A stretch of 64,000 bases of DNA from Alphaproteobacteria bacterium (GCA_965220745.1 CBDCQT010000010.1:1-64000), one strand, 5' to 3'; shown: positions 1 through 48,282, numbered from the stretch's first letter. Numbers and translations: made by a program. The notes: generated by a model from the sequence alone, not told the origin.

Positions 1-1699
1 CCACGGCGGCGCGGCCGAGCAGCGGGTCGAAGCCGAGCCGCGCGGTCACGCGCTCGGCGTCCACTTGCACGCCGGCCACGTCCATCGTGAGCTCCCATTC
101 GACCTCGGGGTCCGCGATGTCGAGCACCTGCATGACGCGCACCGTGGCGCCCGCGCCGCCGCCTGCGGCTTCCACCCATTGCGTGAGCGCGCGGCCCACG
201 TTGTCGATCGCAAGCTCGGCCTGCGGCGCCTGGCCCTCCACGTCGTCGGCCAGGCGCGCGTCGAAGCGCAGCGCGACGTAGCGGTTGCCCTCGATCGTGC
301 GGTCCTCGGTATCGTTGACGACGCGCACCGGGTCCGGCACCGCCGGATGGCGTATCTCAAGCGCGGTGAGCACGCGGCGCTCGGGCGCGCTTTCGCGGAT
401 TGCGCGGGCGTACAGTTCCGAGGCCGGCGGCACGCGGTGGACGCGGGCCGAGACCTGCGGCGCGCCGCTTTCGGCGAGGCCGCGCAGGCTGAAATGGATA
501 ATCCGCCCGAGCCGGGCGAAGGCCAGCGGCCTGCCGGCCTCGGCCCGGCCGGCGATGGCGTGGGCGTCGATACGGCGCAGGCGGGCGCTGATCTCCGCCG
601 CCCCGGCGTCGGCACGGCCCCGGATGGCATGGGCGTCGATGCGGCGCAGGCGGGCGCTCGCCTCCGGTGCGCCGGCGGCGGCGAGGCCGCCCGACCTGCG
701 AATCGTGGGCGTGACGCGCGCCACCGTGGCGCTCGCCTCGGCCGCGCCGGCGGCGGCGCTGCCCCGCACTGCGATCGCGGTGACGGCCGGGCGCGCGAAC
801 GCCAGGATGAAGCCCTGTCCGTCGTCGATGTTGTTGACGATCGTCAGATCGTCGCCGCCGATCGGGCCGAACTGGACGAAGTGGCCGCCCGCATTCGAGA
901 ACGTCGAGGCGGGAAAGCTGCCGAGGCCGTCGACGGTCTGGACATAGACCGTGAGATCGGCGCCGGCGCCGCCGGTGCCGAAGTGGTCGGCGAGCACGAG
1001 CGGCGCGTTGTCGTTAATCATGAAGAACGCGCCGTTGCGCCGCCTGATCCGGGTGATGGCGGCATCGCTCGTGCCGAGGCCCAGCTCGCCGTCGAGCAGC
1101 GCGCCCACGGTGCCGCGCGGCGGGACGGCGAAGATGGTGCCGCCGGACCCGGAGCCGGCGCGGATCAGCGCGAGCAGGTCGAGCTCAAGCCCGGCCGCGT
1201 CGAAGTCCGCGAGCGTGAGCTGCGGCACCCGCTCCACCGTGGCGGCGGCCTCCGCCGCGCCGGCCTCGGCCACGCCCGTTATCGCGGTGGAGGGCTCCAC
1301 GCCGTCGTCGAGCGTGAAGGTGAAGTTGCCCGCCCGCTCGGCAAACCACGCGGTCATCGCGGTGTTGTTGTCCGGCGTCCAGAAGTAGGGCTCGCTCGCG
1401 TCCGCGAAGTCGTTGTCGGCGTGGCCGGGGCCTTTCAACGTGAAGGTGGCGCCGTCGGTGCCGGCGAAGGTGAAGGCCTCGTCGGCGGTCTCCAGCGCGC
1501 CGGTGAACTCCGGCCCGGCGTCGAGCGGCTCGCCGGTCTCGGTTGCCGAAAGCCGAATGCGAACGCTGATGCCGACACGCTGGATATGGCGCAGATAGGC
1601 GACGCCCCCGCCCACGACGAAGGCGGGGTCGATCAGGACGGCGCCCTGCCATCCGGTTTCGACCTGAAGGCCGGTAAGCTGGAGGACCTGCCGCGTCAT
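1..1699 (-). CDS. Phage tail hub/minor tail protein: C-terminal DUF1833-like domain with long N-terminal extension (3' end outside window)
   Basis: Not in the ORF track because there is no stop in the window. Manual translation from ATG 1699 is open to the edge: MTRQVLQLTG...LEIRHPAVPDPVRVVNDT...YVALRFDARLADDVEGQAPQAELAIDNVGRALTQWVE. Confidence 0.75.
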   Translation of the reverse strand, partial: MTRQVLQLTGLQVETGWQGAVLIDPAFVVGGGVAYLRHIQRVGISVRIRLSATETGEPLDAGPEFTGALETADEAFTFAGTDGATFTLKGPGHADNDFADASEPYFWTPDNNTAMTAWFAERAGNFTFTLDDGVEPSTAITGVAEAGAAEAAATVERVPQLTLADFDAAGLELDLLALIRAGSGSGGTIFAVPPRGTVGALLDGELGLGTSDAAITRIRRRNGAFFMINDNAPLVLADHFGTGGAGADLTVYVQTVDGLGSFPASTFSNAGGHFVQFGPIGGDDLTIVNNIDDGQGFILAFARPAVTAIAVRGSAAAGAAEASATVARVTPTIRRSGGLAAAGAPEASARLRRIDAHAIRGRADAGAAEISARLRRIDAHAIAGRAEAGRPLAFARLGRIIHFSLRGLAESGAPQVSARVHRVPPASELYARAIRESAPERRVLTALEIRHPAVPDPVRVVNDTEDRTIEGNRYVALRFDARLADDVEGQAPQAELAIDNVGRALTQWVEAAGGGAGATVRVMQVLDIADPEVEWELTMDVAGVQVDAERVTARLGFDPLLGRAAV

Positions 1700-1723
1700 G
1701 CGCCGCCCCGCCGCCCTCGTTCG

Positions 1724-1750
1724 CGCCCTACCGCTGCGCTGCTTGAGGGC
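1724..1750 (-). repeat. 27-bp intercistronic hairpin repeat, copy 1
   Basis: cgccctaccgctgcgctgcttgagggc; 26/27 identical to 5878-5904. Confidence 0.8.
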
Positions 1751-2145
1751 TAGATCGTGCCGGCGGGAATGCGCACGACGACGGCGCCCGCCGCCACGCG
1801 CAGGATGTCGTCGGTGGTCTGTTGCGAGATCGTGGCCGGGTTGTTGGCCCCATCGAGAAGCGGACCCCACGCGCGCACGGTGCCGCCGGCGGCAGCCGAC
1901 ATGATGGCGAAGTGGGTGGCGTTCTGGACCAGGCCGGTCGGCGCGAAGTCGACCGCCGCGAGGTTCTTCACCTCGCCGGCCGGGTCGGCGTTCACGCGGC
2001 CGAGGTTGATGGCGACCCGGCCGGCGGCCGCGATCAGATTGTTGCCGTTCGCGCCGGGATCGGCGCTGGCCAGCGCAAGATAGTCGTCGCCGGCGTTCGC
2101 GATGGCGAGCGCCGCCCGGCTCTGTTCCGCCGCTGCGATGGGCAT
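1750..2145 (-). CDS. Small phage tail-associated/fibre-like protein
   Basis: 131 aa with YLALASADPG, N..AVDF and ATHFAIMSAAAGG motifs typical of small tail proteins; lies in the tail operon. Confidence 0.6.
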   Translation of the reverse strand: MPIAAAEQSRAALAIANAGDDYLALASADPGANGNNLIAAAGRVAINLGRVNADPAGEVKNLAAVDFAPTGLVQNATHFAIMSAAAGGTVRAWGPLLDGANNPATISQQTTDDILRVAAGAVVVRIPAGTI

Positions 2146-2175
2146 TGGGTCAGTCTCCTTTACGTGGACATGAGC

Positions 2176-2303
2176 GGGACCGGGCCGCAGGCCCGGACGG
2201 CGCGACCGCGCCGCGCGCGTAGCGCGTAGCCAAGCTCGCGGAGCGAGTGCGTCGCGCGGCCACGCGCGCGGGCGCGCGATGCGATTGAGGGAAATGAAGA
2301 GTC
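2176..2303 (+). repeat. Dispersed ~110-130 bp palindromic repeat, copy A
   Basis: Shares ggcccggacggcgcgac...gcgcgtagccaagc...ggagcgag...tgagggaaatgaa-gagtc with copies at 9153, 39483 and 62388. Confidence 0.8.
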
Positions 2304-2304
2304 T

Positions 2305-2679
2305 TCACAGCCCCACGCCCTCCAGCGTGAGGGCCGCCTCCCACGAGCGCCGGCCGTCGCCACCGACGCGCGCGATGTAGTCGATCCCGCCGGCGCCGCC
2401 ACGCACGCGGGCTTGATGCAGGGCGCCGGTCTCGGGCGCGGTCCAGGCAAACCATTGATGCGCGCAGTCTGCTGCCCACGCGCGGAAGCGCGCATAGTCG
2501 TCATCGTCCGCGATCAGCACGGTGAGGCGCAGCGCCGTGAGCGCGGATGCGAAGCGCCGCTCCTGGCGGACGAAGCCATCGTCGAAGGGCGTGCGCGCGA
2601 CGTTGGGATCGTCGGCGACGCCGTAGCCGTCCGCCTCGACCGCGACATAATCGGGCCACACCAGACCGCCGGCGCTCAT
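2305..2679 (-). CDS. Phage distal-tail (Dit-like) minor tail protein
   Basis: 124 aa, WP...DGYG...VARTPFDDG..RQ.RRF...WFAW; directly after the tape measure gene with an ATGA-type overlap. Confidence 0.65.
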   Translation of the reverse strand: MSAGGLVWPDYVAVEADGYGVADDPNVARTPFDDGFVRQERRFASALTALRLTVLIADDDDYARFRAWAADCAHQWFAWTAPETGALHQARVRGGAGGIDYIARVGGDGRRSWEAALTLEGVGL

Positions 2680-3485
2680 GCCACCGCGTCCCTCAGTCCG
2701 AAGCGCCGCGCGATCGCTTGCGACGCCGGCCCGCCGGCGTCGAGGTCTTCGGTAACGATGGTCACGACCAGGCCGCGCGGATCGAGCCGCACCTCGCGGC
2801 CTACCTCGCGCTGCGGCGTGCCGCGATTCTCGAAATTGATATGGACCGAAGGCGCGCCGCGCGGGAGGGTCGCGCCGGGGCCGCGCGGCAAGATAACCTC
2901 GCCGCGTTGCGCGATGATCGGCACCTCGTCGGCGCGCAGGCCCGCAATTCCGCCACCGTGAAAGCGCGGTGCAAGGGCGAAGGCGCCGACCGGCACGGCG
3001 CGCGTGACGCCGCCCGAGGCGCCGACCAGACCGCCTTGGTGACCGACGCCGGCCTGCAAACGGCCAAACAGGTCGGCATCGGGAGCGCTCCCCCTGCCGA
3101 ACGCGCCAAACAGGGCATTGGCGAGCGGCTGGATGATGAAACGGCGTGTCGCAATTCGCGCGAGATCGGCAATCACCGAATCGACGAAGCCTGAGAACGA
3201 GGTCTCGCCCGTGGTGATGAAGCGGGTGAGCGCGGACTCCATGGCGCCGAAGGCGCTCTCGGCCGCAGTCCTGGCCTGATCCAGGGTACTCTCGCTCTCT
3301 CGCCCCAGACTGCCGAGCGCCACCGCAAACGTCTGCGTCGAACCCGCGGCACCTGACAGCGCGGTACCGGCCTCGTTGCCCCGACGCGCGGTTTCGCCAA
3401 GGGACCGATTGAGCGCGCCGATCCCCTGCAGCGCCTCCTGCATGTCCGCGCGGACACGGAGCGCGAGCTCGAGATCACCGGGCAT
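2676..3485 (-). CDS. Short tail tape measure protein
   Basis: 269 aa; N-terminal DLELALRVRAD; lambda-type C-terminal segments AFGAMESALTRFITTG...SVIADLARI and PRFHGGG...DEVPIIAQRGE. Confidence 0.75.
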   Translation of the reverse strand: MPGDLELALRVRADMQEALQGIGALNRSLGETARRGNEAGTALSGAAGSTQTFAVALGSLGRESESTLDQARTAAESAFGAMESALTRFITTGETSFSGFVDSVIADLARIATRRFIIQPLANALFGAFGRGSAPDADLFGRLQAGVGHQGGLVGASGGVTRAVPVGAFALAPRFHGGGIAGLRADEVPIIAQRGEVILPRGPGATLPRGAPSVHINFENRGTPQREVGREVRLDPRGLVVTIVTEDLDAGGPASQAIARRFGLRDAVA

Positions 3486-4050
3486 TAGTCGTATCCCTCG
3501 GGCGCCGGACGCTCATTCCGTGGCCGCGCGGAAGAAGAGGACGATCTGTCGCCACGTCAGGCGCTCGCTGAGATCGAGGTGGCCGCGTCCGTGCCCGGCG
3601 CGGACGAGGGTGTCGAGCACGCGGTAGAGCGGCACGGGCTCTCCTCCCGCGCCTGCGCCGCCATCTGGGCCGCCACCCGGCGCAAAAAAAAAATCCGCCG
3701 TTTGCCGCCCACATCGCCTCGGAGATTGCTCGTCCGTCCGCATCGCTCAAGCGGGCGAGCCATGCCGCGTCCCGGCGGCAGGCGCGGGCGGCAAGTTCCA
3801 GCCAGAGTGCCGCGTGGGTGGCGAGTTCACTCTCGATCGCCAGGGCGTCCGGCCCCTCGTGCTCGGCCCGATCGGGGACCAAGCCTGCCAGCGCGACGAT
3901 CAGAGGCCGAGCCAGCACCGTCGCCTCCAGTCCTTCGCGGAAGCGGTACTCACGCACGGTGAGCGAAACTTGCTCGCCCGTATCCGGGTCGTGCACCGTC
4001 ACCTCGCGATCCGGGAACAGCACCGCGAGCTCGTCGCCCACTCCCGTCAT
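3475..4050 (-). CDS. Tail assembly chaperone with slippery T10 run; alternative frames end at 3557 and 3513
   Basis: DELAVLFPDREVT...TVREYRFREGL...MWAANGGFF between tube and tape measure genes; A10 at 3684-3693 on the + strand. Confidence 0.7.
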   Translation of the reverse strand: MTGVGDELAVLFPDREVTVHDPDTGEQVSLTVREYRFREGLEATVLARPLIVALAGLVPDRAEHEGPDALAIESELATHAALWLELAARACRRDAAWLARLSDADGRAISEAMWAANGGFFFCAGWRPRWRRRRGRRARAALPRARHPRPRRARTRPPRSQRAPDVATDRPLLPRGHGMSVRRPRDTTNAR

Positions 4051-4937
4051 GCGGACTGCCCGTCGATGTAGAGCGCGGGCGCGCCGCCGCCTGGCTCCAG
4101 CATCGAGACGGCGAGGCGGATCTGCTGCTCGGAGGAGCGCCCGTCGAGCAGGGTGAGCCCGCCGGCGGGCTGGATCGAGCAGCGCGGCGCGTAGATATTC
4201 CGCCCCCGACCCTCGGCGGCATCCTCGATGTAGCGAAACGCGCCGATCACCTGGCCGAGCGCGCCCTGCACCTGGTCCCGCGCCGTATCGTCCGGCGTGT
4301 AGTCGATTCCGACCTCGGTACTGTCCACGATGCCGGCCTTCGGCTCATGCAGCGCGTGGTCTGCCGGCAGCCAGAAGATGCGGGCGCGGGCATAGTCCAC
4401 GATGTACTGGCCGGTCTGCTCGGTCTCGCTGGCACCGGTGCCGAAGCGCTCGGCCGCGATCGCCTGCGCCGCCGCCACCGGGGTCTGCGCCGTCGACGCG
4501 ACGGTCACGGCGCTGATCGCCGCCGCCTTGCTCGCCGGCGTGGCCAGCCTGAGAACGCCGGCGGGCCGGGCCGGGCCGCCAAGCTGATACCAGCGGCCGG
4601 GCCGGAAGATCGCAGGCTCGCCCGAGACCTGCGCGGCGGCATCCAGCCGCTTGACCGTGCTCACGGTAAAGAGGGCGAGGTTCTCCAGGCTGATGTCGTG
4701 GAGGGTGAGCGTCACCGTGCGCGCGACGCTGCGGGCGATGCGCGCGAGCTCCCGCGCGACCGGGCCTGAGCCGGAGAATACCGTGGTCTCCTCGGTGGTA
4801 ATCTCCAGCGCAGCCCCTACGGCATCGCCGAGATAGCGCTCGCCCGTCGGCGCGCCGCCCTCGTGGAGGTCGAGATAGACCTCACCTGCCCCGATCACGA
4901 TGTTGTCGGTGCGCTTGTCGATGTTTCGCGCGGTCAT
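4047..4937 (-). CDS. Major tail tube protein
   Basis: NIVIGAGEVYLD...ERYLGD...TLHDISLENLALF...GRWYQLG...C.IQPAG pattern; position in operon. Confidence 0.7.
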   Translation of the reverse strand: MTARNIDKRTDNIVIGAGEVYLDLHEGGAPTGERYLGDAVGAALEITTEETTVFSGSGPVARELARIARSVARTVTLTLHDISLENLALFTVSTVKRLDAAAQVSGEPAIFRPGRWYQLGGPARPAGVLRLATPASKAAAISAVTVASTAQTPVAAAQAIAAERFGTGASETEQTGQYIVDYARARIFWLPADHALHEPKAGIVDSTEVGIDYTPDDTARDQVQGALGQVIGAFRYIEDAAEGRGRNIYAPRCSIQPAGGLTLLDGRSSEQQIRLAVSMLEPGGGAPALYIDGQSA

Positions 4938-4949
4938 TCGCGTGTCTCC

Positions 4950-5426
4950 CTATTCCGCCTCGATAACGCCGGCGCGGGCGATGCGGCGGATTTCGTATTC
5001 GTCGAGCCATTGCAGTCGGCCGTCCTCCAGCGAGACCAGCTGCCCACGACGGAAGGACAGGACCTCGCGCTGGCCGGGCGGCGTCCAGCCGGCGAGCGCC
5101 TGCCTGGCCTGCGCCAGCAGGGCGGAGAGGCGCCCGCGCCTGCGCGCGCCGCCGCGGTCGTTGGGCGCCGCCACCATCACCGAGACCCCGATGCGGACGA
5201 CGTGCTGCACGGGTGCGTTCTCGACCCGGCGCGTCGTGCTCTCCTCCGCTTCGTCGGAGATGGGCAGGACCAGCGCCGCCGGCGTCTTGGGCCAGGCGGT
5301 GAGCGCGGCTGTATCCAGGGCGCTGAGCACGGAGGCGAAGACGGGCGCACGGTCGTCGGCCACGAGCGCGATGAGGCGTTCGGCCATCGCGTCGGCGAGG
5401 TGCATTTCCAGCGCGGCGAGGGTCAT
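4950..5426 (-). CDS. Mu gp37-like tail terminator
   Basis: RQALAGWTPP...F..GQLVSLEDGRLQWLDEY motif; position after gpG. Confidence 0.65.
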   Translation of the reverse strand: MTLAALEMHLADAMAERLIALVADDRAPVFASVLSALDTAALTAWPKTPAALVLPISDEAEESTTRRVENAPVQHVVRIGVSVMVAAPNDRGGARRRGRLSALLAQARQALAGWTPPGQREVLSFRRGQLVSLEDGRLQWLDEYEIRRIARAGVIEAE

Positions 5427-5872
5427 GTCCCCGCTCCTTCGAGCGCGCGCGCGACGATGCCCAGGATGTTGGTGCGGTCGTGCTCGTCGATGCCGAGATA
5501 GGCGCGCGCCGGGAGCGTCACCCTGCGGCCACTGCCGGCGCGCCCGCCGAACTGGTGGATGGCGGCGTAGATGACGCTCGAGCCGACCTCGACCGCGTGG
5601 CCGCCGTCGATGACCGTGTGTGCGATGGAGCCGCGCAACCGACCCGTATCGGTGAGCGTCTTCCCGCCTTCGGCGAGAGCGCGGGCGCTTCTCAGCCAGG
5701 GCTTGCCGTCGGGCCCGCGCTCACGCTCGAAGCGTCGCAGCGTTGAGGCGACGAGGTAGTGCCCGATCTGGTCCATCGTAGCGGAGGAATCGGCCAGCAC
5801 CACCGCCATGCGCGCGAGACCTGCGTTGAGCGTCGCACCCTCGACTTCCAAGCTGATCCGTTGGGAGACCAT
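5423..5872 (-). CDS. Phage virion morphogenesis protein (Mu gpG / P2 gpS family)
   Basis: RF..E.GPDG.PW, TLTDTGRLRGSI, YAAIHQFGG and LPARAYLGI motifs. Confidence 0.9.
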   Translation of the reverse strand: MVSQRISLEVEGATLNAGLARMAVVLADSSATMDQIGHYLVASTLRRFERERGPDGKPWLRSARALAEGGKTLTDTGRLRGSIAHTVIDGGHAVEVGSSVIYAAIHQFGGRAGSGRRVTLPARAYLGIDEHDRTNILGIVARALEGAGT

Positions 5873-5877
5873 TATTT

Positions 5878-5904
5878 CGCCCTACCGCTTCGCTGCTTGA
5901 GGGC
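5878..5904 (-). repeat. 27-bp intercistronic hairpin repeat, copy 2
   Basis: cgccctaccgcttcgctgcttgagggc between the gp36 stop and the gpG start. Confidence 0.8.
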
Positions 5905-5909
5905 GTCCA

Positions 5910-6311
5910 TCACAACCCCGCCAGGGTGTCGGGTGTCAGGGACGGCGTGGGGCCGCCGCGCGCCGCCCTGTCGTGCCGGGGCACCGGGTCGCCGGCGGCG
6001 TCGAGAAGCGCCTCCTCACCGGACGCGAGGCGGGCGAGGGCCGCCTGCGCCCGCTCGGCCCTCGCGGTCACTTCCTCCGGCGAGACGTCGTCGTAGAGCG
6101 CGCGCCGGGCCAGGTCGCAGGCGATTGCCACGAGCCGCGGCCAGGAGCCCCCGCCCAGGGGCAGGCGATAGGCGGAGGCGAGCGCAGCGTCGATCTCGGC
6201 CGCGGCGTCGGCGAGCGCGGACTCGATCCGCCCGGCCTGCATCCCGGCGAGGTCCAGTGTCTCCTCCGCACCGAAGCGCGCCTCCATGTCCGCGCGGGTG
6301 GCGTAGGTCAT
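5910..6311 (-). CDS. Mu gp36 / DUF1320 head-tail connector
   Basis: MTYATRADM..RFG, ALADAAAEIDA.L...Y.LPL and IACDLAR..LY motifs. Confidence 0.9.
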   Translation of the reverse strand: MTYATRADMEARFGAEETLDLAGMQAGRIESALADAAAEIDAALASAYRLPLGGGSWPRLVAIACDLARRALYDDVSPEEVTARAERAQAALARLASGEEALLDAAGDPVPRHDRAARGGPTPSLTPDTLAGL

Positions 6312-7288
6312 GTTTCCGCGCGCCTCCCGGCGCGACCCCGCATCTCCCGCACTTGGGCGGGAGTGAGAGAGGCCTCGAAACGATCTCGGCGGCGATGAAC
6401 CAAGCGGAAGGAGACGCCGTTGATGGTCTCGCGCCGACCGTCCAGCGCGGGCTCGCCGAAGGCGCGCAGCGTGCCGCCGCGCGTGCCGCGATCGACCAGG
6501 ACGAGCCGGCGGGCGAACGCCGGTGCGGTCTGCGGCGTCGGCTCCAGAAATGTCTTTCCAAAGCGGCGCCGCATTTCCCGCCAGGTGACGGTCAGGCCCG
6601 CCTCGGGTACCGGCAGAGCCGTCGCCTCGGCCCCCTCTTCCTCCACCTCTCCGTCGGGGCCGAGTCCGGCCTCAGCCAGTGCGCGACGATGCTCGCGCTC
6701 GTAGACCGCGATGCGTGCCTCCAGCGCGGCGCTCGCCCGTTTGGCCTCCTCCGGAGTCTCGGTCACGCCGGCGTCGGCCATGGCTTGCTGGCGCCGCGCT
6801 TCCTCCGCCCGCTCGCGCTCGATCGCCTGCGTCATGCGGGCAGCGTATTCGCGGGCGCTCGCCTGGCGCGCTGCGAGCGCAGCCTGTTCGGCGTCCGCGC
6901 TCATTCGCTCGCACGCCTCCCGCACCGCCTCCGGGACCGGCGGCTGCGGATAGTCGATCTCCTCGCGGGTCGTGTAGGCCGGCACCGCCGCCCGCGCGCG
7001 GGCGGCATAGTCGAGCACCGCGAGCAGGGTGACGGACGGTGTGCCGATGACGCGCCGCTCGGCGTCGCGGAGCGCGCGCATCTCGGGCACGATCCGCTGA
7101 TAGAGGGTGCGGCTCATGGCATCGCCGCGCAGCCAGCCGATCCACGAATCGCGGATCTCGCAGTAGGCGTGGACCATGTTCAGCAGGCGCTCGGCATGCC
7201 GGCAGACCTCGCCCTCGGCCGCGCTCTGGCGCGGGTCCGCCGGCGAATAGCCGAGCCCGCACAGGTGATCGGGAGGGGATGCGGCCAT
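6308..7288 (-). CDS. Hypothetical protein with coiled-coil centre, between capsid and gp36
   Basis: 326-aa ORF starting 4 bp after the capsid stop and overlapping the gp36 start (ATGA). Confidence 0.65.
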   Translation of the reverse strand: MAASPPDHLCGLGYSPADPRQSAAEGEVCRHAERLLNMVHAYCEIRDSWIGWLRGDAMSRTLYQRIVPEMRALRDAERRVIGTPSVTLLAVLDYAARARAAVPAYTTREEIDYPQPPVPEAVREACERMSADAEQAALAARQASAREYAARMTQAIERERAEEARRQQAMADAGVTETPEEAKRASAALEARIAVYEREHRRALAEAGLGPDGEVEEEGAEATALPVPEAGLTVTWREMRRRFGKTFLEPTPQTAPAFARRLVLVDRGTRGGTLRAFGEPALDGRRETINGVSFRLVHRRRDRFEASLTPAQVREMRGRAGRRAET

Positions 7289-7291
7289 CGG

Positions 7292-8266
7292 CTAGGCCAC
7301 CGCGTTGCGCCAGAGGTAGCCGGCGCGGCTGTAGGCCACGAGTTCCTTGACGCACTCGCTGACCTTGACGACGGTCGAGCCACGGTTGACGCCGCGCGCC
7401 GGCTCCTCGTAGGTGCCGACCTGCAACCCGCCGAGGGCATCGGCGGTCCAGCAGAACTTGGGCATCCGGTCGCGGGAGGACGCCATGTCGCGGCGCACGT
7501 GGATCGCACAGGCGTGCTTGCCCCAGAGGCGGGCGAAGCTGTCTTCCTGGCCGCGCTTGGCGCTCTGATACCAGGCCATGCCGACCAGCACGCGGTCGAC
7601 CTCGAAGAGCTCGGCCACCGCCTCCTTCACGACGATGCCGGAAGCCTGATCGCCGGCGCCGGTGGCAGCCACCGCTTCCACGATCTTCGGATGCTGGCGG
7701 AGCGCGGTCCACACCTTTTGGCCGAAAACCAGCACGTTGGGGCGGACGAGAGGCACGTCGAGAGCCTCCAGGATCGCCTTGCGCGGGTTCGAGCTGGCGT
7801 GGCTCCACTGCGCATTGCCGTTGAGCGTGGCGGAGTGGCCCGCCGCGTAGCTGGACGCGGTGGTCACCAAGTCGGCCACGCGCCGCTCGCGCGCGAGCTT
7901 CACCAGTTCGGCGGTCGAGATCGCGGCCTGCTCCAGCGGGTCGTAGGCGACCTCCTGAGCGCGGGCTTCCTCGATGTCGCGGGAGGGGACCGGGTCTTCC
8001 AGGCCGTAATCGACGACGCTCGCGGTGGTGTCCGTGGCGCCGAACTCGACCTGATTGAGGCGCCCTGCGCGGGAGGCCCGCACGTCCGGGATGGTGAGCA
8101 GGTCCTCCTCGGTAAGCGTGGTGTAAGTGAACTTGTAACCGGTGCGGACGCGCGGGCAGACCTCGTCGGCGATCAGGCCGGACGGCATCGCCGCCTGCGC
8201 GATCTGCGTGAGCCGGGTCTGGACCTCGTAGGGGCCAGAAGCGAGCTGGGTGGTGTGCAGATCCAT
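7292..8266 (-). CDS. Major capsid protein
   Basis: LTQIA...LIADEVCPRV, VEFGA, DYGLEDPVP, LARERRVADLV and ALRQHPKIV motifs of Mu-like/gpE capsids. Confidence 0.85.
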   Translation of the reverse strand: MDLHTTQLASGPYEVQTRLTQIAQAAMPSGLIADEVCPRVRTGYKFTYTTLTEEDLLTIPDVRASRAGRLNQVEFGATDTTASVVDYGLEDPVPSRDIEEARAQEVAYDPLEQAAISTAELVKLARERRVADLVTTASSYAAGHSATLNGNAQWSHASSNPRKAILEALDVPLVRPNVLVFGQKVWTALRQHPKIVEAVAATGAGDQASGIVVKEAVAELFEVDRVLVGMAWYQSAKRGQEDSFARLWGKHACAIHVRRDMASSRDRMPKFCWTADALGGLQVGTYEEPARGVNRGSTVVKVSECVKELVAYSRAGYLWRNAVA

Positions 8267-8276
8267 GGTGATTCCC

Positions 8277-8633
8277 TCAGTGAAGGCCGGGGGCGAGCAG
8301 CACCTGGCCGATGTCGCCGGAGACGCCGGAGACCTCGGCGATGCCGATGACGCGGTTACCGTCGGCTGCGGTCACCGCCTTGCCGTCGGCGTCGGCGGTG
8401 AGCAGCGCGCCCCGCGCGACGTTGGCGCCGTATTCGATGTCGGCGATGCCGGTGCGGGCGATCTCGACACGCCCACCCGAGGCCGCAGACGCCCGGCCGG
8501 AGACCCCGACGTGGGCGTCTGCAGCGGCGGCGGACTGCACCACCTTGCCGTCGGCGTCGCCGTACTTGACGATTCGGTGGGGGGCGACGGCACCGCCGGC
8601 GTCCGCCGCCCGCCACATCAACACATGACTCAT
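8277..8633 (-). CDS. Capsid cement/decoration protein (DUF2190-like)
   Basis: 118 aa; RIVKYG, G..VARGALLTADADGKAV and IG.A..SGVSGDI motifs. Confidence 0.8.
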   Translation of the reverse strand: MSHVLMWRAADAGGAVAPHRIVKYGDADGKVVQSAAAADAHVGVSGRASAASGGRVEIARTGIADIEYGANVARGALLTADADGKAVTAADGNRVIGIAEVSGVSGDIGQVLLAPGLH

Positions 8634-9787
8634 TGCGTTCCTCCTTCGATGCCGAGCCCGCGCTTGGCGCGCGCCCGGTCGACGGCCTCGGCGGGGGTGA
8701 GCGACATGCCCCTCTCCGCCTCCGCCGCCATCAACGCGCGGGCCTCGGCAGCGATCCGCTCGCTGTCCTTGCCCGCATCCTCGTGAGTGCCCGCGAACGC
8801 CGACGCGCCCGGCACCGGGCCGCCCGCGAGCGTCCGGTAGTCCACGCGCCTGGGCAGGCCCTCGATGAACCGTTCCAGAATGGCGGCGGGCCGCATCCGC
8901 TCCTCGCCGCCGGAGGCCGACGCGAAGGCGATGGTGGCGTGTCCGCCTGCGGCGCCCTCGTCGTCGCTGGCCTGGCCGTCGCCGAGCGCGGCGAGCAGCG
9001 CGACAAGCGCCGCCCGTTCCGCAGGCAAGATTCGCCCCGCCTCCACATGGGGCGCGATCGCCGCCTCGGCCGCCCGCCGCCTGTCGTCGGCCGCTACTGC
9101 CGCCTCGCGCACGAGCAGCGCGGCCTCTCGTGCAGCCAGCGTGGCTTCGCGCTTGTTTGTTTCCCTCAGGCGCCGGGCGCTCGCTCCGCTCGCTTGGCTA
9201 CGCGCCTCACGGCGCGGCGCGCGGTCGCGCGCTCCGGGCTGCTCCACAGCCCGGCCCTCCTTGGCTGCCGTACTTGAGGTGGATTCGCGGACGTCTGCCT
9301 CGTTCTCTTCCGGCGCGGCAGCGCGGTGAGAGTCGGGGTGTGCTGCGGGTTGTTGGCCTGCCAATGCCACCTGGTCATCGTCGGAGAAGGCGATCACCGT
9401 CTCCGGTGCGGATGCGAAGCACGTCGGCGCGAGCCCCGGTACCGCTGGCGCACGGCCGCCGAGGAAGCCGAGATGGCGCAGCGTGTCGCCCTGGAGCGCG
9501 ATCGAGCGGCCGGCGTAGTGCCCGGCCTCGACCGCCTCGCGGAAGGCGGGTGCGATGTCGCGCAGCGTCGCCTGCAGCCGGTCGCCGACGCGGCGCAGAC
9601 CGTCGATCCAGGCGTAGGCTGGCGCGTCGGCTTCCGGGTGGCCCACGACGACGGGCGCAGGGTCGGCGGCGGCGTGCTCGGCGACGATGCGATCGAGGCG
9701 GGCCTCGTCGATCGCCACCTCGCGGCCGGCGATGTCGCGCCAAGTGCCGGCGCGGCAAATGTCAATCCAGCCGTCGAGGGCGCTCAT
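8630..9787 (-). CDS. Mu-like prohead protease I / scaffold
   Basis: WIDICRAGTW, APVVVGHP...APAYAWI, V.AG.Y..RSI and LRHLGFLG..PAVPGL motifs. Confidence 0.85.
   Translation of the reverse strand: MSALDGWIDICRAGTWRDIAGREVAIDEARLDRIVAEHAAADPAPVVVGHPEADAPAYAWIDGLRRVGDRLQATLRDIAPAFREAVEAGHYAGRSIALQGDTLRHLGFLGGRAPAVPGLAPTCFASAPETVIAFSDDDQVALAGQQPAAHPDSHRAAAPEENEADVRESTSSTAAKEGRAVEQPGARDRAPRREARSQASGASARRLRETNKREATLAAREAALLVREAAVAADDRRRAAEAAIAPHVEAGRILPAERAALVALLAALGDGQASDDEGAAGGHATIAFASASGGEERMRPAAILERFIEGLPRRVDYRTLAGGPVPGASAFAGTHEDAGKDSERIAAEARALMAAEAERGMSLTPAEAVDRARAKRGLGIEGGTQ
9153..9257 (-). repeat. Dispersed repeat, copy B, in frame within the protease gene
   Basis: Reverse complement matches copies A, C and D; translated as GRAVEQPGARDRAPRREARSQASGASARRLRETNK. 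Confidence 0.8.
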
Positions 9788-9912
9788 CGCGCGCCTCCAG
9801 TCGCGCCCAAGGCACGCGGGATTGAAAGAGTGTCGAAGGAGCGCGGGAGCGAGAGAGTGTCGCAGGTGCGCGGTTTCAGGACCCGGGGGTCAGAGGGTGA
9901 GTGCGCGTTCAT
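9784..9912 (-). CDS. Putative 42-aa leader peptide coupled to the protease gene
   Basis: ATG lies 7 nt after a -10-like CATTGT; its TGA overlaps the protease ATG; internal repeat CDTLSLPR/FDTLSIPR. Confidence 0.4.
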   Translation of the reverse strand: MNAHSPSDPRVLKPRTCDTLSLPRSFDTLSIPRALGATGGAR

Positions 9913-9919
9913 GGCGCGG

Positions 9920-9970
9920 ACAATGCCGCATGCCGGCGGCCCCGTGCACCGCACCATGGTCCGGGGTGTT
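9920..9970 (-). promoter_or_regulatory. Activator-dependent (Mu late PI-like) promoter: 25-bp dyad, 20-nt spacer, -10-like CATTGT
   Basis: gcaccgcaccatggtccggggtgtt (9946-9970) is identical to 39420-39444 with the same spacing to the -10 box. Confidence 0.6.
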
Positions 9971-10185
9971 AGATTCTTTTCCCCTCACTCGCAGAGCGCT
10001 CGAAACCGCCAGCCGCGCACGATTTAACGGTGGCCTTCCCAGACAAAAACAGCGCTGCCGTCGATCGTTGTAAGACGTGCGCAACCCGGCCTTTTTACCG
10101 AGCGCGAGGCGAGATTGAAACGCTTCGAGTCGCTCCGTTCTCCAGGCTGGCGGCCCCCTGTAAAACGGGCCTCGCCTGTGACCTT

Positions 10186-10476
10186 CTACGTCCTCACAGG
10201 CTCGACAATAACGCGATTACGCCCGCGCCGAATCAAGTAGCCACCTCGCGGAATTGCCAGCGTACCGTCCCGGACAAGCGGCCAGAGTGTATCGACAATC
10301 AATTCGGCGTCGAGATCCCTTTCGATCACCACTGGCTTCGGCTGTGTGGCCAACCATGCGGCAAACGCACGCTCACCGATCTCGTCACCCACAGATCTGC
10401 GCAGCGTTTCGAGCTTGCGAAGCTGCCCTTTTGTCAACGTGCTCTCGTCGATCTTGGTGAAAGATCGTCTGGCCAT
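10186..10476 (-). CDS. Small hypothetical protein
   Basis: 96-aa ORF with a GGAG RBS and an AT-rich upstream region. Confidence 0.6.
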   Translation of the reverse strand: MARRSFTKIDESTLTKGQLRKLETLRRSVGDEIGERAFAAWLATQPKPVVIERDLDAELIVDTLWPLVRDGTLAIPRGGYLIRRGRNRVIVEPVRT

Positions 10477-10706
10477 AAATTTATCTCCGTGAAACCGGCG
10501 GATTGTATGTGCTCGTCATATATCAAAAAATATGCACGATTGAAAATACCCCGTTTGGTTGATATTACCAAAAAGTATACCTGTGGATTTAGGAGGCATA
10601 CAGCAAGACGAATTGCTGAGCAACTCACCGAAATTACGGAGGAATTTAGGTCATCAATGCGGTGACCTCACCTCAACTTCAATAACATATAGTGATTAAT
10701 ATAACC

Positions 10707-11492
10707 TTATTGTGCGGTCCAACCTCCATCAATTAACAGACTCGCGCCCGTAATCAGGCTAGCAGCGTCACTCGCCAGAAACACAACTGCCCCCATCACG
10801 TCGGAAATCTCGCCGAGTCGACCCAGCGCAATACGGTTCAGCGTGTCTTCCTTGAACGCCGGATCTTCGAGGAACGGACGAGTCATCGGGGTCGAAATAA
10901 AGGTTGGACCAATGGCATTAACCCGGATGTTATATGGCGCCAAATCCATCGCCATCGCCTTGGTCATGCCCTCGATGGCATGCTTGGTGGCGCAGTAGAC
11001 CGTGCGCCGCGGCCCGCCGACATGGCCCATCTGGGAGGACATGTTGATGATGACACCGCCCCGATTCGCGGCGACCATCTCTCGCGCGACCGCCTGGGCG
11101 CAGAAATAGGCGCCGCGCACGTTAATCCCCATCACGGCGTCGAAATCTTCCACCGTCACGTCGAGCAGCGGCGCCGGGCGGTTGCCGCCGGCGTTGTTGA
11201 CGAGAATATCGACCGGCCCGAGCGCCGTGAGCGCTTCCGCTGCCCGCTCAACGTCGGCGATGTCGAGCGCGAGCGTCTCCGTCCTCCCGGCCGTAACCGC
11301 GATTTCGTCCGCCACTCGCTCCAGCGCGTCTTGGCCCCGCGCCGCGAGCACGACGCAGGCACCAGCCTCGGCGAGTGCGGCGGCGCAGGCGCGGCCGAGG
11401 CCGCGGCTCGCCCCGGTGACCAGCGCCCGCCTGCCGTCGAGCCGGAACGACGGCGTCGTCGGCAGCGCGTCGTCTGCTGCGGAATCAGGCAA
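10707..11492 (-). CDS. SDR oxidoreductase (HpsO-like by context)
   Basis: [12 protein letters not shown] and YCATK motifs; overlaps the HisD-like gene. Confidence 0.9.
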
Positions 11493-12774
11493 TGTTTATG
11501 CCGCCGTAACGGCGCACGCGGATGTCCGCCTGCTCCTTGTGCCCAGCAAAGCCTTCCAGTGCGCAGAGGCGCGAGCAGTACTCCCCAACAATGGTCGAGG
11601 CCTCGTCGGTCAGAACACGCTGGTAGGTGCAGGTCTTGAGGAACTTGCCGACCCAGAGGCCACCGGTGTAGCGCGCGGCCTTGCGTGTCGGCAAGGTGTG
11701 GTTGGTGCCGATCACCTTGTCGCCGTAGGAGACGTTGGTGCGCGGGCCCAGGAAGAGCGCGCCGTAGTTGGTCATGCGCTCGAGGAACCAGTCGGCGTCC
11801 TCGGTCATCACTTGAACGTGCTCGGCGGCGATCTCGTCCGCCACCGCCACCATCTCGTCCAACGTGTCACAGACGATCACCTGGCCGTAGTCGCGCCACG
11901 CCTGGCCCGCGATCTCTGCGGTCGGCAGGATGGTGAGCTGACGCTCGACCTCGGTCATGGTCTGACGGGCGAGGGTTTCGGAGTTGGTCAGCAGGGTTGC
12001 CGGTGAGGTCGGCCCGTGCTCCGCCTGGCCCAGGAGGTCGGCGGCGCAGAGCTCGCCGTCCACGGTTTCGTCGGCGATCACCAGGGTCTCGGTGGGCCCG
12101 GCCAGCAGGTCGATACCCACGCGACCGAAGAGCTGGCGCTTGGCCTCCGCCACGAAGGCGTTGCCGGGGCCCACCAGCATGTCCACCTGTTCGATGCTGC
12201 CGGTCCCGAGCGCCATGGCGCCCACCGCCTGAATGCCGCCCAGCACGTAGATCTCGTCGGCGCCCGCGAGGTGCTGGGCTGCGACGATTGCCGGCGCGGG
12301 GCTGCCCTCGAACGGCGGGGCACAGGTCGCGATGCGCTCGACACCCGCCACCTTTGCCGTCACCACCGACATATGGGCGGACGCCACCATGGGGTACTTG
12401 CCGCCCGGCACGTAGCAGCCGACCGCGTTCACCGGGATGTTCCTGTGACCCAGCACCACGCCCGGCAGGGTCTCGACCTCGACATCCTGCAACGCGCCGC
12501 GCTGGGCCTGCGCGAAATTGCGAATCTGCTCCTGGGCGAAGAGGATGTCCTCGCGGTCCTGGCCTGGCAGCCGGTCCAGGCAGGCTTCGATCTCCGCCTC
12601 GCTGAGCCGGAAGTCCTCGCGCTCCCAGCGATCGAACTTGATCGACATCTCGCGCACGGCCGCATCGCCCCGCTTCGCGATGTCGTTCAACGCGTCTTCC
12701 ACGACGCGGCGGACCTTCTCGTCGGCCTCCGCCGCCTCGGCATCGCTGATTCCGGTCTTTAGGTATCGAGGCAT
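11485..12774 (-). CDS. hpsN: Histidinol dehydrogenase-family protein, probably sulfopropanediol 3-dehydrogenase
   Basis: [29 protein letters not shown] and [15 protein letters not shown] (HpsN-type rather than HisD GDY); not in a his operon. Confidence 0.65.
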
Positions 12775-12844
12775 CGGCGTTCCTGCTTTCTATTGCGCGC
12801 GTTACCGCGCGAGAGCGCGTGCGCAGCCGCATTGCGCCCTGGAT

Positions 12845-13129
12845 TCAGGTTTCGACGGTGACGCCCCGCCAGAAGGCGACATGGTCGCGGATATTCTCGG
12901 CCGCCGGCTTGGGATCGGGGTAATACCACGCAGCATCGGCGTTTCGCGCGCCGTCGACTTCGACCGTGTAGTAGTGGGCCGTGCCCTTCCAGCCGCAGAC
13001 GGTGGTCGTCTCGCTCGGCGTGAGGAACGCGCGGTTCACGGCCTCCGCCGGGAAGTAGACGTTGCCCTCCACGCTCTCCCACGTCTCGGACTCTGCGATG
13101 ACCTGCCCTTGCCAGAGTGCGCGCGCCAT
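12845..13129 (-). CDS. DUF427 protein
   Basis: VEGNVYFP, CGWKGTAHYY, AAWYYPDPK and VAFWRGV motifs. Confidence 0.9.
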   Translation of the reverse strand: MARALWQGQVIAESETWESVEGNVYFPAEAVNRAFLTPSETTTVCGWKGTAHYYTVEVDGARNADAAWYYPDPKPAAENIRDHVAFWRGVTVET

Positions 13130-13156
13130 ATCCGCTCCCCTCGTGCCGCTCGTCGC

Positions 13157-13594
13157 CTAAGCCTGCGGCACCCACTTGATGATGTGCTGCGCCACGGCAA
13201 CGGTCTCGCCGCGTTGGTTGACCACCTCGATGTCGGATAGCGCGCGGCGGCGCTCCTCGTCGACCTCGGAGACTGTATAAGTCACGCTCACCGTATCGTT
13301 GATGTAGACCGGGGCGGTGAAGCGGATGCGATCATAGCCGAGCGAAACGGGGGTCTCCTCGCTTCCCCGCTCATCGCACCGGGCGATCATCATGGTGGAC
13401 GTCGTCGACATGAACCCGACCAGCAGCGCCCCGTGGGCGATCCGGTGCCCGTAGGACGTCTCGGACATGTACTGCTCGTTCACGTGCAGGCCGTTGAGGT
13501 CACCGGTGATGCCCGCAAAGAGGTACACGTCGCTTTCGCCGACGGTCTTGGAAAACGTGACCCGCTCGCCGACGCTCACGTGGAAGTCGGACAT
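13157..13594 (-). CDS. MaoC-family dehydratase
   Basis: FAGITGDLNGLH, RIAHGALL and RFTAPVYINDT motifs. Confidence 0.9.
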   Translation of the reverse strand: MSDFHVSVGERVTFSKTVGESDVYLFAGITGDLNGLHVNEQYMSETSYGHRIAHGALLVGFMSTTSTMMIARCDERGSEETPVSLGYDRIRFTAPVYINDTVSVTYTVSEVDEERRRALSDIEVVNQRGETVAVAQHIIKWVPQA

Positions 13595-13662
13595 CCCTCG
13601 CTCCGAGATCGATCAGCCGGTCTTCGCGCGGGCGGCGCTGGTGCCTGTCCAGGCAGGGACCG

Positions 13663-14259
13663 TCAATAGCCGGCGGGCTGGCCCCAGCGGTCGGCGAAAA
13701 TGTACTCGTTGAAGGGGCGCCGCGTGCGCTCGCCCAACTCCATCTCGCGGAGGTCGTCGGGGAGGGTATCCGGGTCACCGGGATAGCCGACGGCGATCCC
13801 GGTCACGGGGTCGTAGCCCTCCGGCACGCCATAGACCTCCCGGATCTTGTCCGCCTCGATGCCGGCCATCTGATGGGTCGCGTAGCCGAGCTCCGTGGCC
13901 TGCAGGACGAGTTGGCAGGCGGCGAGGCCGATGTCGTGGACGCAGCAGCTGTTGGGCGAATTGTTGTGGTCGAAGGTGCGCTTGGTCACGGTGAGGATGA
14001 GCAGCGACGCGTTCCGCGCCCAGACCTGGTTGCCGGGCACTAAGCAGTCCAGTAGCTGCGCGAACCGTTCCTCCTGGTCCCTGGTCGCGACCAGGAAGTG
14101 CCAGGGTTGTTGGTTGAAGCTCGACGCTGCCCAGCGCGCGGCCTCCAGCAGTATGAGGATGTCCGCGCGGGGCATGGGACGCGGGTCGAACGCGCGCGGG
14201 CTCCAGCGTCGCTTCATTGCCTCGTTGATCGGGTGTTCGGCCAGCGCCGGCTTCTCCAT
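13663..14259 (-). CDS. Nitroreductase family protein
   Basis: RRWSPRAF, AARWAASSFNQQPWHF and HQMAG motifs. Confidence 0.9.
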   Translation of the reverse strand: MEKPALAEHPINEAMKRRWSPRAFDPRPMPRADILILLEAARWAASSFNQQPWHFLVATRDQEERFAQLLDCLVPGNQVWARNASLLILTVTKRTFDHNNSPNSCCVHDIGLAACQLVLQATELGYATHQMAGIEADKIREVYGVPEGYDPVTGIAVGYPGDPDTLPDDLREMELGERTRRPFNEYIFADRWGQPAGY

Positions 14260-25239: not shown

Positions 25240-25689
25240 CTACGGCGCGACCGGGTTGAGCGTCGTCAGCCCCTCGTTGGTCGCAGCGTCGCAGAGGCAC
25301 ATGTCCGCACAGACGAGCGTCACCGGCTCGGGCGTGGCTTCGCGCACGACGAGACAGCCCGCAAGCTGAAGCGCGTCGTAAGTGCGGAGCGGATGCCGGT
25401 CGATTAGCCGCGCGGCCTCCTCCATCACCGCCGATGTCAACGGCTGCACCAGGAAGAGCGCCGAAGCGTCGTCCTCGATTTGCCTCAAAATCCGCTCTGC
25501 GTCCGGACCCGAGATGTCGCCTTCACGCTCACGCCGCCTGATCGCCGAGCGGGCTTCGACCTTCGTGAGGTCCAGAATGACCACTTGGCCATCCTCGGCG
25601 TCCTCCACGATGTGCGTGACCCGATCCGCCCCGTCTTCCTCGATGTAGAGCTTGAGCAGCGCACTCGTGTCCAGATAGACGTTCGCCAT
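25240..25689 (-). CDS. vapC: PIN-domain VapC toxin
   Basis: [21 protein letters not shown] and CAD..L..AA motifs. Confidence 0.85.
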
Positions 25690-25698
25690 TCGACCGCT

Positions 25699-39620: not shown

Positions 39621-39688
39621 GCCCGGACGGCGCTCATGCGCCGCTCTATTTTCTCGTCATGCCCGGACTTGATCCATTGCTGTCCGGT

Positions 39689-48276: not shown

Positions 48277-48282
48277 GGGCGC

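Follow-up and report, generated by a model that had tools for sequence, protein, structure and literature searches.

A host-maintained transposable-phage head and tail operon without packaging genes in uncultured alphaproteobacteria: a candidate locus for a gene transfer agent-like particle

Introduction

Three independently exapted groups of gene transfer agents (GTAs) with an established genetic basis are evaluated in PMC9662315. In this work we analyzed a cluster of phage-derived head and tail genes that runs on the minus strand from position 10476 to position 1 of a 64,000-nucleotide stretch of alphaproteobacterial DNA (GCA_965220745.1, CBDCQT010000010.1:1-64000); this whole stretch is referred to as the window. 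Judged by its gene families, the cluster appears to be the head module of a transposable phage of the Mu/B3 type joined to a siphovirus tail of the lambda type. Our comparisons led us to reject a neutral remnant and an assembly artefact, and they strongly support an exapted head-neck-tail module that is maintained by its host. An original prediction, made by a model from the window's sequence, had proposed a domesticated Mu-derived particle at this site.

RcGTA, the agent of Rhodobacter capsulatus, is like this cluster a head-to-tail operon of ~15 kb and ~17 genes without replication or lysogeny genes, which lies between host genes and is vertically inherited. RcGTA requires 24 genes at five loci (PMC5026251). 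According to PMC7296036, its tape measure g11 consists of a 113-residue helix with a further 83 and 20 residues and goes with five tube discs. The tape measure encoded in the window is very short as well (269 amino acids (aa)), and the original prediction drew this parallel fairly. Unlike the window's cluster, that of RcGTA itself holds large terminase and portal genes, and the protein families are others: none of 18 scanned proteins matched a GTA-named NCBIfam model, and the head described here is of the transposable-phage type. Where RcGTA has its terminase (g2), portal (g3), HK97-type protease and capsid (g4/g5) and tail-tip proteins (g12-g15), Pfam, PHROGs and NCBIfam assign the genes of the window's cluster to other families. 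Furthermore, RcGTA particles and gene transfer have been shown experimentally, whereas the present cluster is known from its genes.

A precedent for the architecture proposed below is offered by BhGTA (VSH-1) of Brachyspira hyodysenteriae. It is described as encoded at two loci (PMC5026251); terL is missing from its 16.3-kb structural cluster, and the only identifiable terL, conserved and present in a single copy, lies outside (PMC9662315). It shares with the window's cluster a structural gene set without a terminase gene. In contrast, its host is a spirochaete, its proteins are unrelated and its gene transfer has been demonstrated, whereas an unlinked terminase is here only predicted.

In the phage collection searched, the B3-like phages (JBD67, JD18; genus Beetrevirus) came closest. 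Their capsid proteins are ~40% identical to the one in the window over 99% of its length, the match being to B3-like Pseudomonas phages; 69 phage records matched, all at less than 60% identity. The same run of protease, cement/scaffold, capsid, adaptor, terminator, tube, chaperone and tape measure is found in these phages and in the window. In JBD67, however, the small and large terminase subunits (TerS, TerL), portal, gpF and gpG are encoded directly 5' of the protease, and the B3-like phages also have a transposase, regulators, lysis genes and a tape-measure region of ~3.2 kb, all of which are missing here. The window's cluster, unlike these phages, has gpG after Gp36, and its tail tip is of the lambda TipJ/DUF1833 type.

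Vertically inherited defective prophage genes were reportedly found to be under purifying selection by Bobay et al. in 2014. Domesticated defective prophages resemble the cluster in both respects, vertical inheritance and purifying selection; they usually retain patchy gene sets, whereas the cluster is a complete, ordered head-neck-tail operon with a frameshift signal and a remodelled tape measure. Domesticated prophages are also the general theme in the abstract of PMC8987985.

Gene content of the cluster

The operon is tightly packed, with several neighbouring genes overlapping by 4 nt. From its start it encodes, in this order, a small open reading frame (ORF), protease/scaffold, cement, capsid, a 326-aa protein, Gp36, gpG, terminator, tube, chaperone, tape measure and tail-tip proteins:

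10186-10476, minus strand: small ORF, 96 aa; no family match in Pfam, PHROGs or NCBIfam
8630-9787, minus strand: head maturation protease/scaffold of the Mu gpI type, 385 aa (phrog_976, E 1.4e-46)
8277-8633, minus strand: cement/decoration protein, 118 aa (PF09956, E 5e-7; phrog_673, E 4e-23)
7292-8266, minus strand: major capsid protein, 324 aa (phrog_1005, E 2e-70; PDB 3bjq_A, E 1.4e-15)
6308-7288, minus strand: 326-aa protein, modelled with a helical N-terminal part, long coiled helices and a C-terminal beta domain
5910-6311, minus strand: head-tail adaptor of the Mu Gp36 family (PF07030, E 1.8e-18)
5423-5872, minus strand: virion morphogenesis/tail completion protein of the Mu gpG family (PF05069, E 4e-31; TIGR01635)
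4950-5426, minus strand: tail terminator (PF23840, E 2e-20)
4047-4937, minus strand: major tail tube protein of a non-contractile tail (phrog_807, E 1e-28; NF052337 tail_tube_6XGR, E 1.5e-36)
3475-4050, minus strand: tail assembly chaperone G/GT, DUF6631 (PF20336, E 4e-17, residues 6-130)
2676-3485, minus strand: tape measure protein, 269 aa (PF09718)
2305-2679, minus strand: small tail-tip protein, 124 aa (phrog_384)
1750-2145, minus strand: Gp80-like small fibre/tail protein, 131 aa (PF23140, E 6e-11)
2-1699, minus strand: minor tail protein with C-terminal DUF1833, incomplete at the window edge (PF08875, E 1e-24, residues 439-563)

A gpI-type protease/scaffold, a phrog_1005 capsid protein, Gp36 and gpG together mark the head as that of a transposable phage, in agreement with the Mu-like head and tail operon, opening with the protease, that had been predicted. 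The protease is 26% identical to gp30 of JBD67, and gpG is 33% identical to gp29 of the same phage. In the protease, conserved N- and C-terminal parts flank a hypervariable central linker; for this protein Pfam stayed empty even at E <= 5, and the PDB gave no match.

For comparison, species-representative genomes were scanned with a profile of 48 short-tape-measure proteins. This gave 39 loci (numbered with an L below), and the clusters were compared by local tblastn; the six that share the window's cluster come from metagenome-assembled genomes (MAGs) titled Rhodospirillales or Alphaproteobacteria bacterium. The window's own genome is not among the 39 loci, and the best tape-measure identity is 74%. 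With the window edge the last visible gene is cut, running off at position 1. Past this point, L002, L003 and L006 encode three more proteins, namely a minor tail protein (135 aa), a member of the TipJ family (1198-1292 aa) and a fibre with a collar domain (~250 aa), and the entire element measures ~15.5 kb and comprises ~17 genes, with host genes at both ends.

The tape measure, 269 aa as the original prediction had it, is made up of parts from both ends of a long tape measure, 40 aa from the N-terminus and 215 aa from the C-terminus. In the 1056-aa tape measure of L010 the aligned residues are 1-38 and 826-1054, and in the 768-aa one of L015 they are 5-44 and 537-760. Since only the ends of the long proteins are matched, we conclude that the central part was deleted in frame. 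In phage lambda, it is this central part that sets tail length. The tail would hence be expected to reach only about a quarter to a third of the length found in relatives with tape measures of 768-1056 aa. A search with the 269-aa protein returned 159 proteins at E <= 0.001. Among the best 120 of these, query coverage reaches 91% or more in 107, with identities of 42-100%, and lengths are mostly 255-290 aa; many of these short relatives lie on megabase contigs. From this near-complete coverage it follows that the short form is a conserved family and not a one-off deletion. L010 (a Rhodospirillales MAG, CBDFHV010000082.1) is the closest long-tailed relative among the loci retrieved, with amino-acid identities of 36-72%. 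It has the same order from protease to fibre, gpG after Gp36, a Gp80-like gene and an extended DUF1833 protein, and it differs in its 1056-aa tape measure.

In four of six genomes (L003, L004, L005 and L006), the chaperone G/GT gene carries a slippery run of eight T (T8) and a conserved -1 extension. The DUF1833 minor tail protein has an N-terminal extension of 430 aa with 69-nt tandem repeats, which encode 23-residue protein repeats; at 534-694, Tandem Repeats Finder (TRF) counts 2.3 copies and a repeat finder 4. This fused form aligns to the whole query in three loci, and the contigs of L004 and L005 stop within the gene.

Pfam, PHROGs, NCBIfam, Atlas and, by sequence, the PDB were all without a match for the 326-aa protein. 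It had 26 hits among 1.84 billion representatives. Because 25 of the 26 are strong (E <= 1e-10), the protein is restricted to the lineage, without distant relatives. Fold searches with its confident model (predicted local distance difference test score, pLDDT, 83.2) gave 0 matches at E <= 0.001 in the PDB and likewise in BFVD, and a profile comparison with the small ORF returned nothing.

Conservation, selection and inheritance

Six loci (L002-L007) carry the same cluster in the same order, L007 as a 1.9-kb fragment. Upstream, MaoC, DUF427, histidinol-dehydrogenase-like and SDR genes are found in all four loci that reach far enough (L002, L003, L004 and L006), as in the window. Downstream, RidA, CMD and AhpC genes come after the fibre gene in all three that do so (L002, L003 and L006), with one extra SDR gene in the downstream host flank of L003. 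L005 begins 225 bp before the small ORF, and its first ~140 bp do not align with the other loci. Gene order and overlaps are preserved in every genome. Because independent assemblies agree on this arrangement, an assembly or rearrangement artefact can be rejected.

Conservation differs markedly between the proteins. Identity to the window is highest for the capsid protein (93-97.5%, five loci) and the cement protein (91-95%, four loci), followed by terminator (87-93%), tube (82-88%) and phrog_384 protein (76-82%, five loci), and lower for protease (68-75%), tape measure (55-74%) and DUF1833 protein (54-62%). Two host proteins of the upstream flank, the histidinol-dehydrogenase-like protein and the SDR, are 92-97% and 85-92% identical. 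Three 90% clusters with at least 92% identity to the window capsid hold 205, 26 and 11 sequences.

The ratio of nonsynonymous to synonymous substitution rates (dN/dS; Nei-Gojobori, all pairs) indicates purifying selection on every gene, at 0.07-0.47. It was 0.074 for the capsid gene, which is as constrained as a housekeeping neighbour, 0.126 (0.11-0.13) for cement, 0.133 for the terminator, 0.160 for the tube and 0.195 (0.20-0.23) for Gp36. Intermediate values were obtained for the chaperone (0.233), the phrog_384 protein (0.254), the tape measure (0.281; 0.25-0.28), gpG (0.289) and the Gp80-like protein (0.315), and the highest for the protease (0.325; 0.33-0.38), the 326-aa protein (0.326; 0.33-0.36) and the DUF1833 protein (0.465). 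Four host flank genes gave 0.085-0.136. In a codon bootstrap with two independent pairs pooled, the upper 95% limits of dN/dS were all <= 0.55. In agreement with this, all 32 coding indel events in nucleotide alignments of 12 genes were multiples of three, against 7 of 35 in two upstream intergenic stretches. This count was restricted to copies whose alignment stayed in a single frame along 90% or more of their length, and it left out the L002 protease and cement genes, the L003 gene for the 326-aa protein and the DUF1833 copies of L004 and L005 that are ended by the contig.

Synonymous divergence was similar in the cluster (dS 0.31-0.82) and in the flanks (0.44-0.69). Over ten pairs, which are not independent of one another, pairwise dS of the cluster followed that of the flanks nearly one to one (Pearson 0.87, Spearman 0.94; 0.42-0.62 versus 0.36-0.62). 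Trees built from 2.8 kb of flanks and from 6 kb of cluster genes have the split of window and L003 from the rest in common, each with a support of 1.0. Shared flanks and dS tracking both speak for structural genes that are fixed and vertically inherited.

The checks that the original prediction had called for, on synteny, vertical inheritance and dN/dS, came out in its favour. It had also named ways in which it might fail, namely absence from close relatives, pseudogenization, or a prophage split by rearrangement or misassembly; none of these describes the cluster in general, L002 being partly broken.

Packaging and propagation genes

Upstream of the small ORF, the window continues with host genes for an SDR (10707-11492), a histidinol-dehydrogenase family protein (11485-12774), DUF427, MaoC, nitroreductase, TolC-like and other proteins, and a single small ORF followed by host genes is what had been foreseen. 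Terminase, portal and gpF genes were absent from the 64-kb window by Pfam (47 ORFs, 10.7-64 kb), by PHROGs (nine window ORFs, seven of them among the 10 that Pfam left unnamed) and by tblastn. In the latter, JBD67 TerS, TerL, portal and gpF as well as TerL and portal of L009 gave no match at E <= 0.01 (0/6 queries), and the JBD67 gpG query recovered the gpG of the cluster. The JBD67 transposase query had one weak match, to an unrelated insertion sequence (IS) integrase at 58.6-58.9 kb. Neither in the window nor in the orthologous loci L002-L006 did we find a terminase, portal, gpF, integrase or transposase of the element, and replication, integration and lysogeny genes were found neither in the cluster nor in its flanks. 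The lack of packaging and replication genes that had been predicted accordingly holds for these regions.

The gene content also sets the cluster apart from other phage-related elements. For a transposable phage, it lacks a DDE transposase, a transposition protein, a repressor, a late activator and the TerS-TerL-portal-gpF block 5' of the protease. A satellite (P4-like, phage-inducible chromosomal island (PICI) or capsid-forming PICI) would carry an integrase, a replication module and helper-exploitation genes, all absent from the cluster, and the site is fixed. For an F-type tailocin, finally, protease, cement and capsid genes should be missing; the cluster has all three, and none of its genes is under stronger constraint than the capsid gene.

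Interpretation

We are largely confident that the cluster has been inherited vertically and kept by selection. The best explanation for this, in our view about as probable as all others together, is an exapted phage structural module that gives rise to a GTA-like particle with packaging genes elsewhere. The late head-to-tail operon of a siphophage of the transposable (Mu/B3) type would have become fixed in the chromosome of a host lineage, which keeps it under selection. Its genes would be expressed jointly from the region of the small ORF and an invariant ~65-nt block upstream of the protease. Protease/scaffold, capsid protein and cement would form the capsid, and Gp36, gpG and terminator the neck; the tail joined to it would be short and non-contractile, with a tip of the TipJ type and a fibre with a collar domain. 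Portal and terminase would have to be supplied from another locus, because a tailed capsid can be neither made nor filled without both. The product would be a GTA-like particle whose cargo is DNA other than the full set of its own genes. That adaptor, gpG and terminator are constrained, and the capsid gene most of all, makes a complete particle the simplest function, and such a particle needs portal and terminase encoded elsewhere. The formation of particles with the help of unlinked packaging genes we regard as evenly balanced, and that these particles amount to a true GTA as somewhat doubtful.

With similar reserve, we may speculate that the cluster represents an independent GTA lineage, descended from a transposable (Mu/B3-type) siphophage and not from the HK97-type ancestor of RcGTA, in which the operon became separated from portal and terminase genes, the tail was shortened by an internal deletion in the tape measure and the whole was kept by an uncultured Rhodospirillales clade, so strictly that the capsid protein evolves no faster than an adjacent housekeeping enzyme. 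No description of a Mu-derived GTA was found among the titles and abstracts that the searched open-access library listed. If this is true, a further GTA lineage from a different phage ancestor would show that the domestication route recurs. It would also provide a natural case of a structural operon uncoupled from its packaging genes and a clean example of tail-length remodelling by in-frame tape-measure deletion, and it would point to a mechanism of gene exchange in a clade known only from MAGs.

Several observations weigh against a GTA-like particle. Portal, terminase, gpF and a lysis gene were not found in the 64-kb window and the 20-kb loci, and their existence elsewhere is assumed. The argument is drawn from genes, and purifying selection is reportedly also found on defective prophage genes that have no GTA function (Bobay et al. 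2014). Moreover, the cluster is damaged in one genome. L002 has a frameshift near protease residue 100 and a deletion of ~700 bp (window 8894 to 8195), by which the protease loses its C-terminus, the capsid protein its first 24-29 residues and the locus its cement gene, and its TipJ gene is split near residue 905; in the neck and tail part, every gene from Gp36 through the DUF1833 protein aligns over its full length. From this loss of the head module it follows that maintenance is not universal. The domesticated Mu-derived particle of the original prediction stands as regards domestication, vertical inheritance and selection (synteny, dS, dN/dS); the partial loss of the head module in L002 speaks against its simple form. 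In L003 the C-terminus of the 326-aa protein is changed; no lesions were seen in the available parts of L004, L005 and L006.

Further points of this kind concern the chaperone, the trees and other genomes. ORFs are mostly intact, as had been predicted, with the chaperone slippery run as an exception: the window has T10 at 3684-3693 in place of T8, its conserved T-part lying in another frame and ending at 3513, and L002 has T7. In both, the zero frame continues into non-conserved sequence. These runs may reflect homopolymer assembly errors or a real change that requires slippage. The second internal split of the trees conflicts, with L002 and L004 grouped in one (support 0.995) and L004 and L006 in the other (1.0). 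Taken with dS tracking and the shared split, this indicates inheritance that was for the most part vertical; the conflict points to recombination between closely related lineages, or else to too little flank data. Finally, L014, L015, L016, L022 and L028 carry head/tail clusters that are truncated in different ways, and truncated remnants therefore appear to be common in this type of genome.

The module might instead have been domesticated for a function without packaging, as a bacteriocin-like tail device, a capsid-shell compartment or a means of interfering with the assembly of infecting relatives. We consider this unlikely, even though selection by itself is silent on what the function is, portal and terminase genes are present in no locus examined, and in L002 the head module is broken, and TipJ is split, whereas alignment is full-length all the way from Gp36 through the DUF1833 protein. 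A tail-only device would be hard to reconcile with a capsid gene that is the most constrained of all (dN/dS 0.07). Adaptor, gpG and terminator, which are known only as connectors between a portal-bearing head and a tail, are constrained too (0.13-0.29), and selection was seen on every gene tested and not on a subset.

Dependence on a helper is still less probable. Here an infecting or co-resident transposable phage would contribute portal, terminase and replication, and would either use the head and tail proteins of the island or be parasitized by them. The missing genes are indeed exactly the block that precedes the protease in B3-like phages (TerS, TerL, portal and gpF). Moreover, capsid relatives with 45-56% identity are found on contigs of ~39-43 kb, the size of whole transposable phages, so that such phages exist in the same sequence space. 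The integrase, replication and helper-sensing genes of satellites are absent, however, and the island sits at a fixed site and has diverged together with its host flanks. With ~40% identity to the closest capsid in the phage collection, mixed assembly also seems doubtful.

Phage Mu has a separate late transcript that starts with the protease gene, which would make the protease start a natural breakpoint. The cluster could then be one half of a functional prophage that was split by a chromosomal rearrangement and still propagates, with its other half, comprising early, lysis and packaging genes, elsewhere. The position of the break at this late transcript start and the intact ORFs would fit, but we think this very improbable: the same break and flanks are present in all four loci with upstream sequence, which belong to separate species-level genomes that were assembled independently, the cluster has diverged as much as its host flanks, composition is fully host-like, and dispersed host repeats have inserted at differing places in different genomes. 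Two separate halves could presumably not be packaged as one genome either.

A neutral, decaying prophage remnant awaiting deletion, the alternative named in the original prediction, is the most remote of these readings and largely refuted: absent packaging, lysis and early genes, the lesions of L002, homopolymer lengths that vary in the window and L002, and colonization by repeats would agree with it, but dN/dS is far below 1 (0.07-0.47, bootstrap upper limits <= 0.55, at dS 0.3-0.8), 32 of 32 coding indels keep the frame as opposed to 7 of 35 intergenic ones, gene order and overlaps are kept in every genome, patchy loss is confined to L002, and co-divergence with the flanks also opposes a series of recent transfers of one active phage.

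Upstream region and small ORF

Two non-coding features precede the protease gene:

10477-10706, minus strand: AT-rich non-coding stretch from the host SDR gene to the small ORF, candidate promoter region
9905-9970, minus strand: invariant non-coding block of ~65 nt, located 120-185 nt 5' of the protease gene

Between the SDR stop and the start of the protease gene, the G+C fraction is 0.56, versus ~0.72 in the surroundings, and blocks immediately 5' of the small ORF are kept in six loci. The stretch at 10477-10706 is a candidate promoter region; a scan of 9700-10800 with the sigma-70 consensus found 0 sites resembling promoters, and 2 resembling terminators where 1.1 were expected. The CtrA-box consensus, a short motif, had 0 sites in the upstream regions of all six genomes.

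The small ORF is attached to the cluster in all six genomes, including L005 with its differing upstream flank. It is 71-82% identical across five loci, with a dN/dS of 0.17-0.19 and a lower G+C content at third codon positions (GC3) of 0.65. The PDB gave no match by sequence and Atlas no usable one, and Pfam matches were sub-threshold and scattered (at most 8 of 53 members, best E 0.025). Its model (pLDDT 78.8) shows three helices and a beta hairpin, with 0 matches at E <= 0.001 in a fold search. The family is large, with 735 hits at E <= 0.001 out of 739 candidates, and is without a Pfam domain. Match listings suggest that at least two carrier genomes have further copies at other loci: the suggested extra copy of L002 is 70% identical, compared with 79% for the cluster copy, and in the second carrier a named relative lies on a different contig from the tape measure of that MAG. 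The small ORF is a candidate regulator. Its further copies, if they lie in front of other operons of phage origin, could point to the missing partner loci.

The ~65-nt block is unchanged in all six genomes while its surroundings vary, and it contains a 10-bp dyad around a variable centre. We regard it as a candidate operator or regulatory element. An RNA element was considered and is not claimed, since the predicted hairpin comes without covariation, which is impossible where stems never vary, and its fold is no better than that of shuffled sequences (z = -0.05). A search of window 1-11000 against Rfam gave a lone chance-level match (E 0.28) and no family for the block. The first 21 nt of the block recur once, with 1 mismatch, on the minus strand at 39418-39438, ~365 nt upstream of an aspartate carbamoyltransferase gene and beside copies of a dispersed repeat described below. 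Just 5' of the protease start codon, a stretch with poor conservation in the five related loci holds a 27-nt tandem repeat (9815-9873, 2.2 copies).

Composition and repeats

The cluster cannot be told from its host by base composition, as had been noted in the original prediction. The G+C fraction is 0.70-0.73 over 1-10 kb and 0.65-0.74 in the host-gene part (window ~72% G+C), and GC3 is 0.80-0.93 in the cluster versus 0.74-0.94 in host genes, so that both ranges overlap. Two repeats occur in it:

2190-2300, plus strand: dispersed ~95-nt repeat, intergenic
9165-9245, minus strand: dispersed ~95-nt repeat, in the protease linker
62400-62480: dispersed ~95-nt repeat
~39520-39640: dispersed ~95-nt repeat
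1724-1750: 27-nt hairpin-like repeat, in the gap between the Gp80-like and DUF1833 genes
5878-5904: 27-nt hairpin-like repeat, in the gap between the Gp36 and gpG genes

The ~95-nt repeat is GC-rich with internal hairpins and resembles repetitive extragenic palindromes (REP) or miniature inverted-repeat transposable elements (MITE). It is also found in L002, L003, L005, L006 and L008, and its positions in the cluster differ among genomes. A 26-nt core recurs at 2222 (intergenic), 9180 (in the protease gene, in frame) and 62434 (between host genes). These three matches compare with 0 in 100 shuffles and bear out the claim that host repeats have colonized the cluster. The copy in the protease linker, which leaves the frame unbroken, is present in the window and L003, partly in L004, and absent from L005 and L006. 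The 27-nt repeat occurs in L002, L003, L005 and L006 at similar and at other intergenic places.

Other loci and other features of the window

Among the more distant loci, L015 (OY730228.1, 3205-17275; capsid 39% identical) opens at the protease right after host MaoC and UbiD genes. Neither gpG nor the 326-aa gene is present, the tape measure has 768 aa and host genes follow at the end of the cluster; the same truncation may have happened here a second time, separately. In L022 a protease-capsid fusion comes first, after a topoisomerase gene, and a portal gene lies downstream of the tail genes (12804-14084). Further truncated clusters beside host genes begin after a repressor-like gene (L028), from Gp36 (L014) or from the tube region (L016). 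L008 (OZ243972.1) has at 10001-10885 a solitary short-tape-measure relative of 294 aa, 39% identical over its full length, among host-like neighbours (caspase-domain proteins, OmpA, amidohydrolase) where no other phage genes were detected.

Three IS elements lie within 39689-42413 and 57805-58997 of the window: DDE_Tnp_1 with DUF4372, DDE_Tnp_1_4, and an IS3-type pair (HTH_Tnp_1 and rve). A transposase of the DDE_Tnp_1_4 family, found in the window at 41073-42413, also sits between chaperone and tape measure genes in L010 (6043-7383). The region 45032-57782 is probably an integrated mobile element with defence genes. It encodes a TrwC relaxase with an AAA_30 helicase (46189-48276) and a UvrD-like protein, after which follows an island of low G+C fraction (0.51-0.60, ~49.5-56.6 kb). 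This island holds an SNF2 helicase resembling the defence proteins ZorD/DpdE (50656-52437), a phrog_9298 'radical SAM domain' match (53447-55105) and a HATPase protein, and a tyrosine recombinase is encoded at 57045-57782. Finally, the region 25240-26367 encodes a PIN-domain protein of 149 aa beside a 222-aa ORF without a family, and the two may form a toxin-antitoxin pair.

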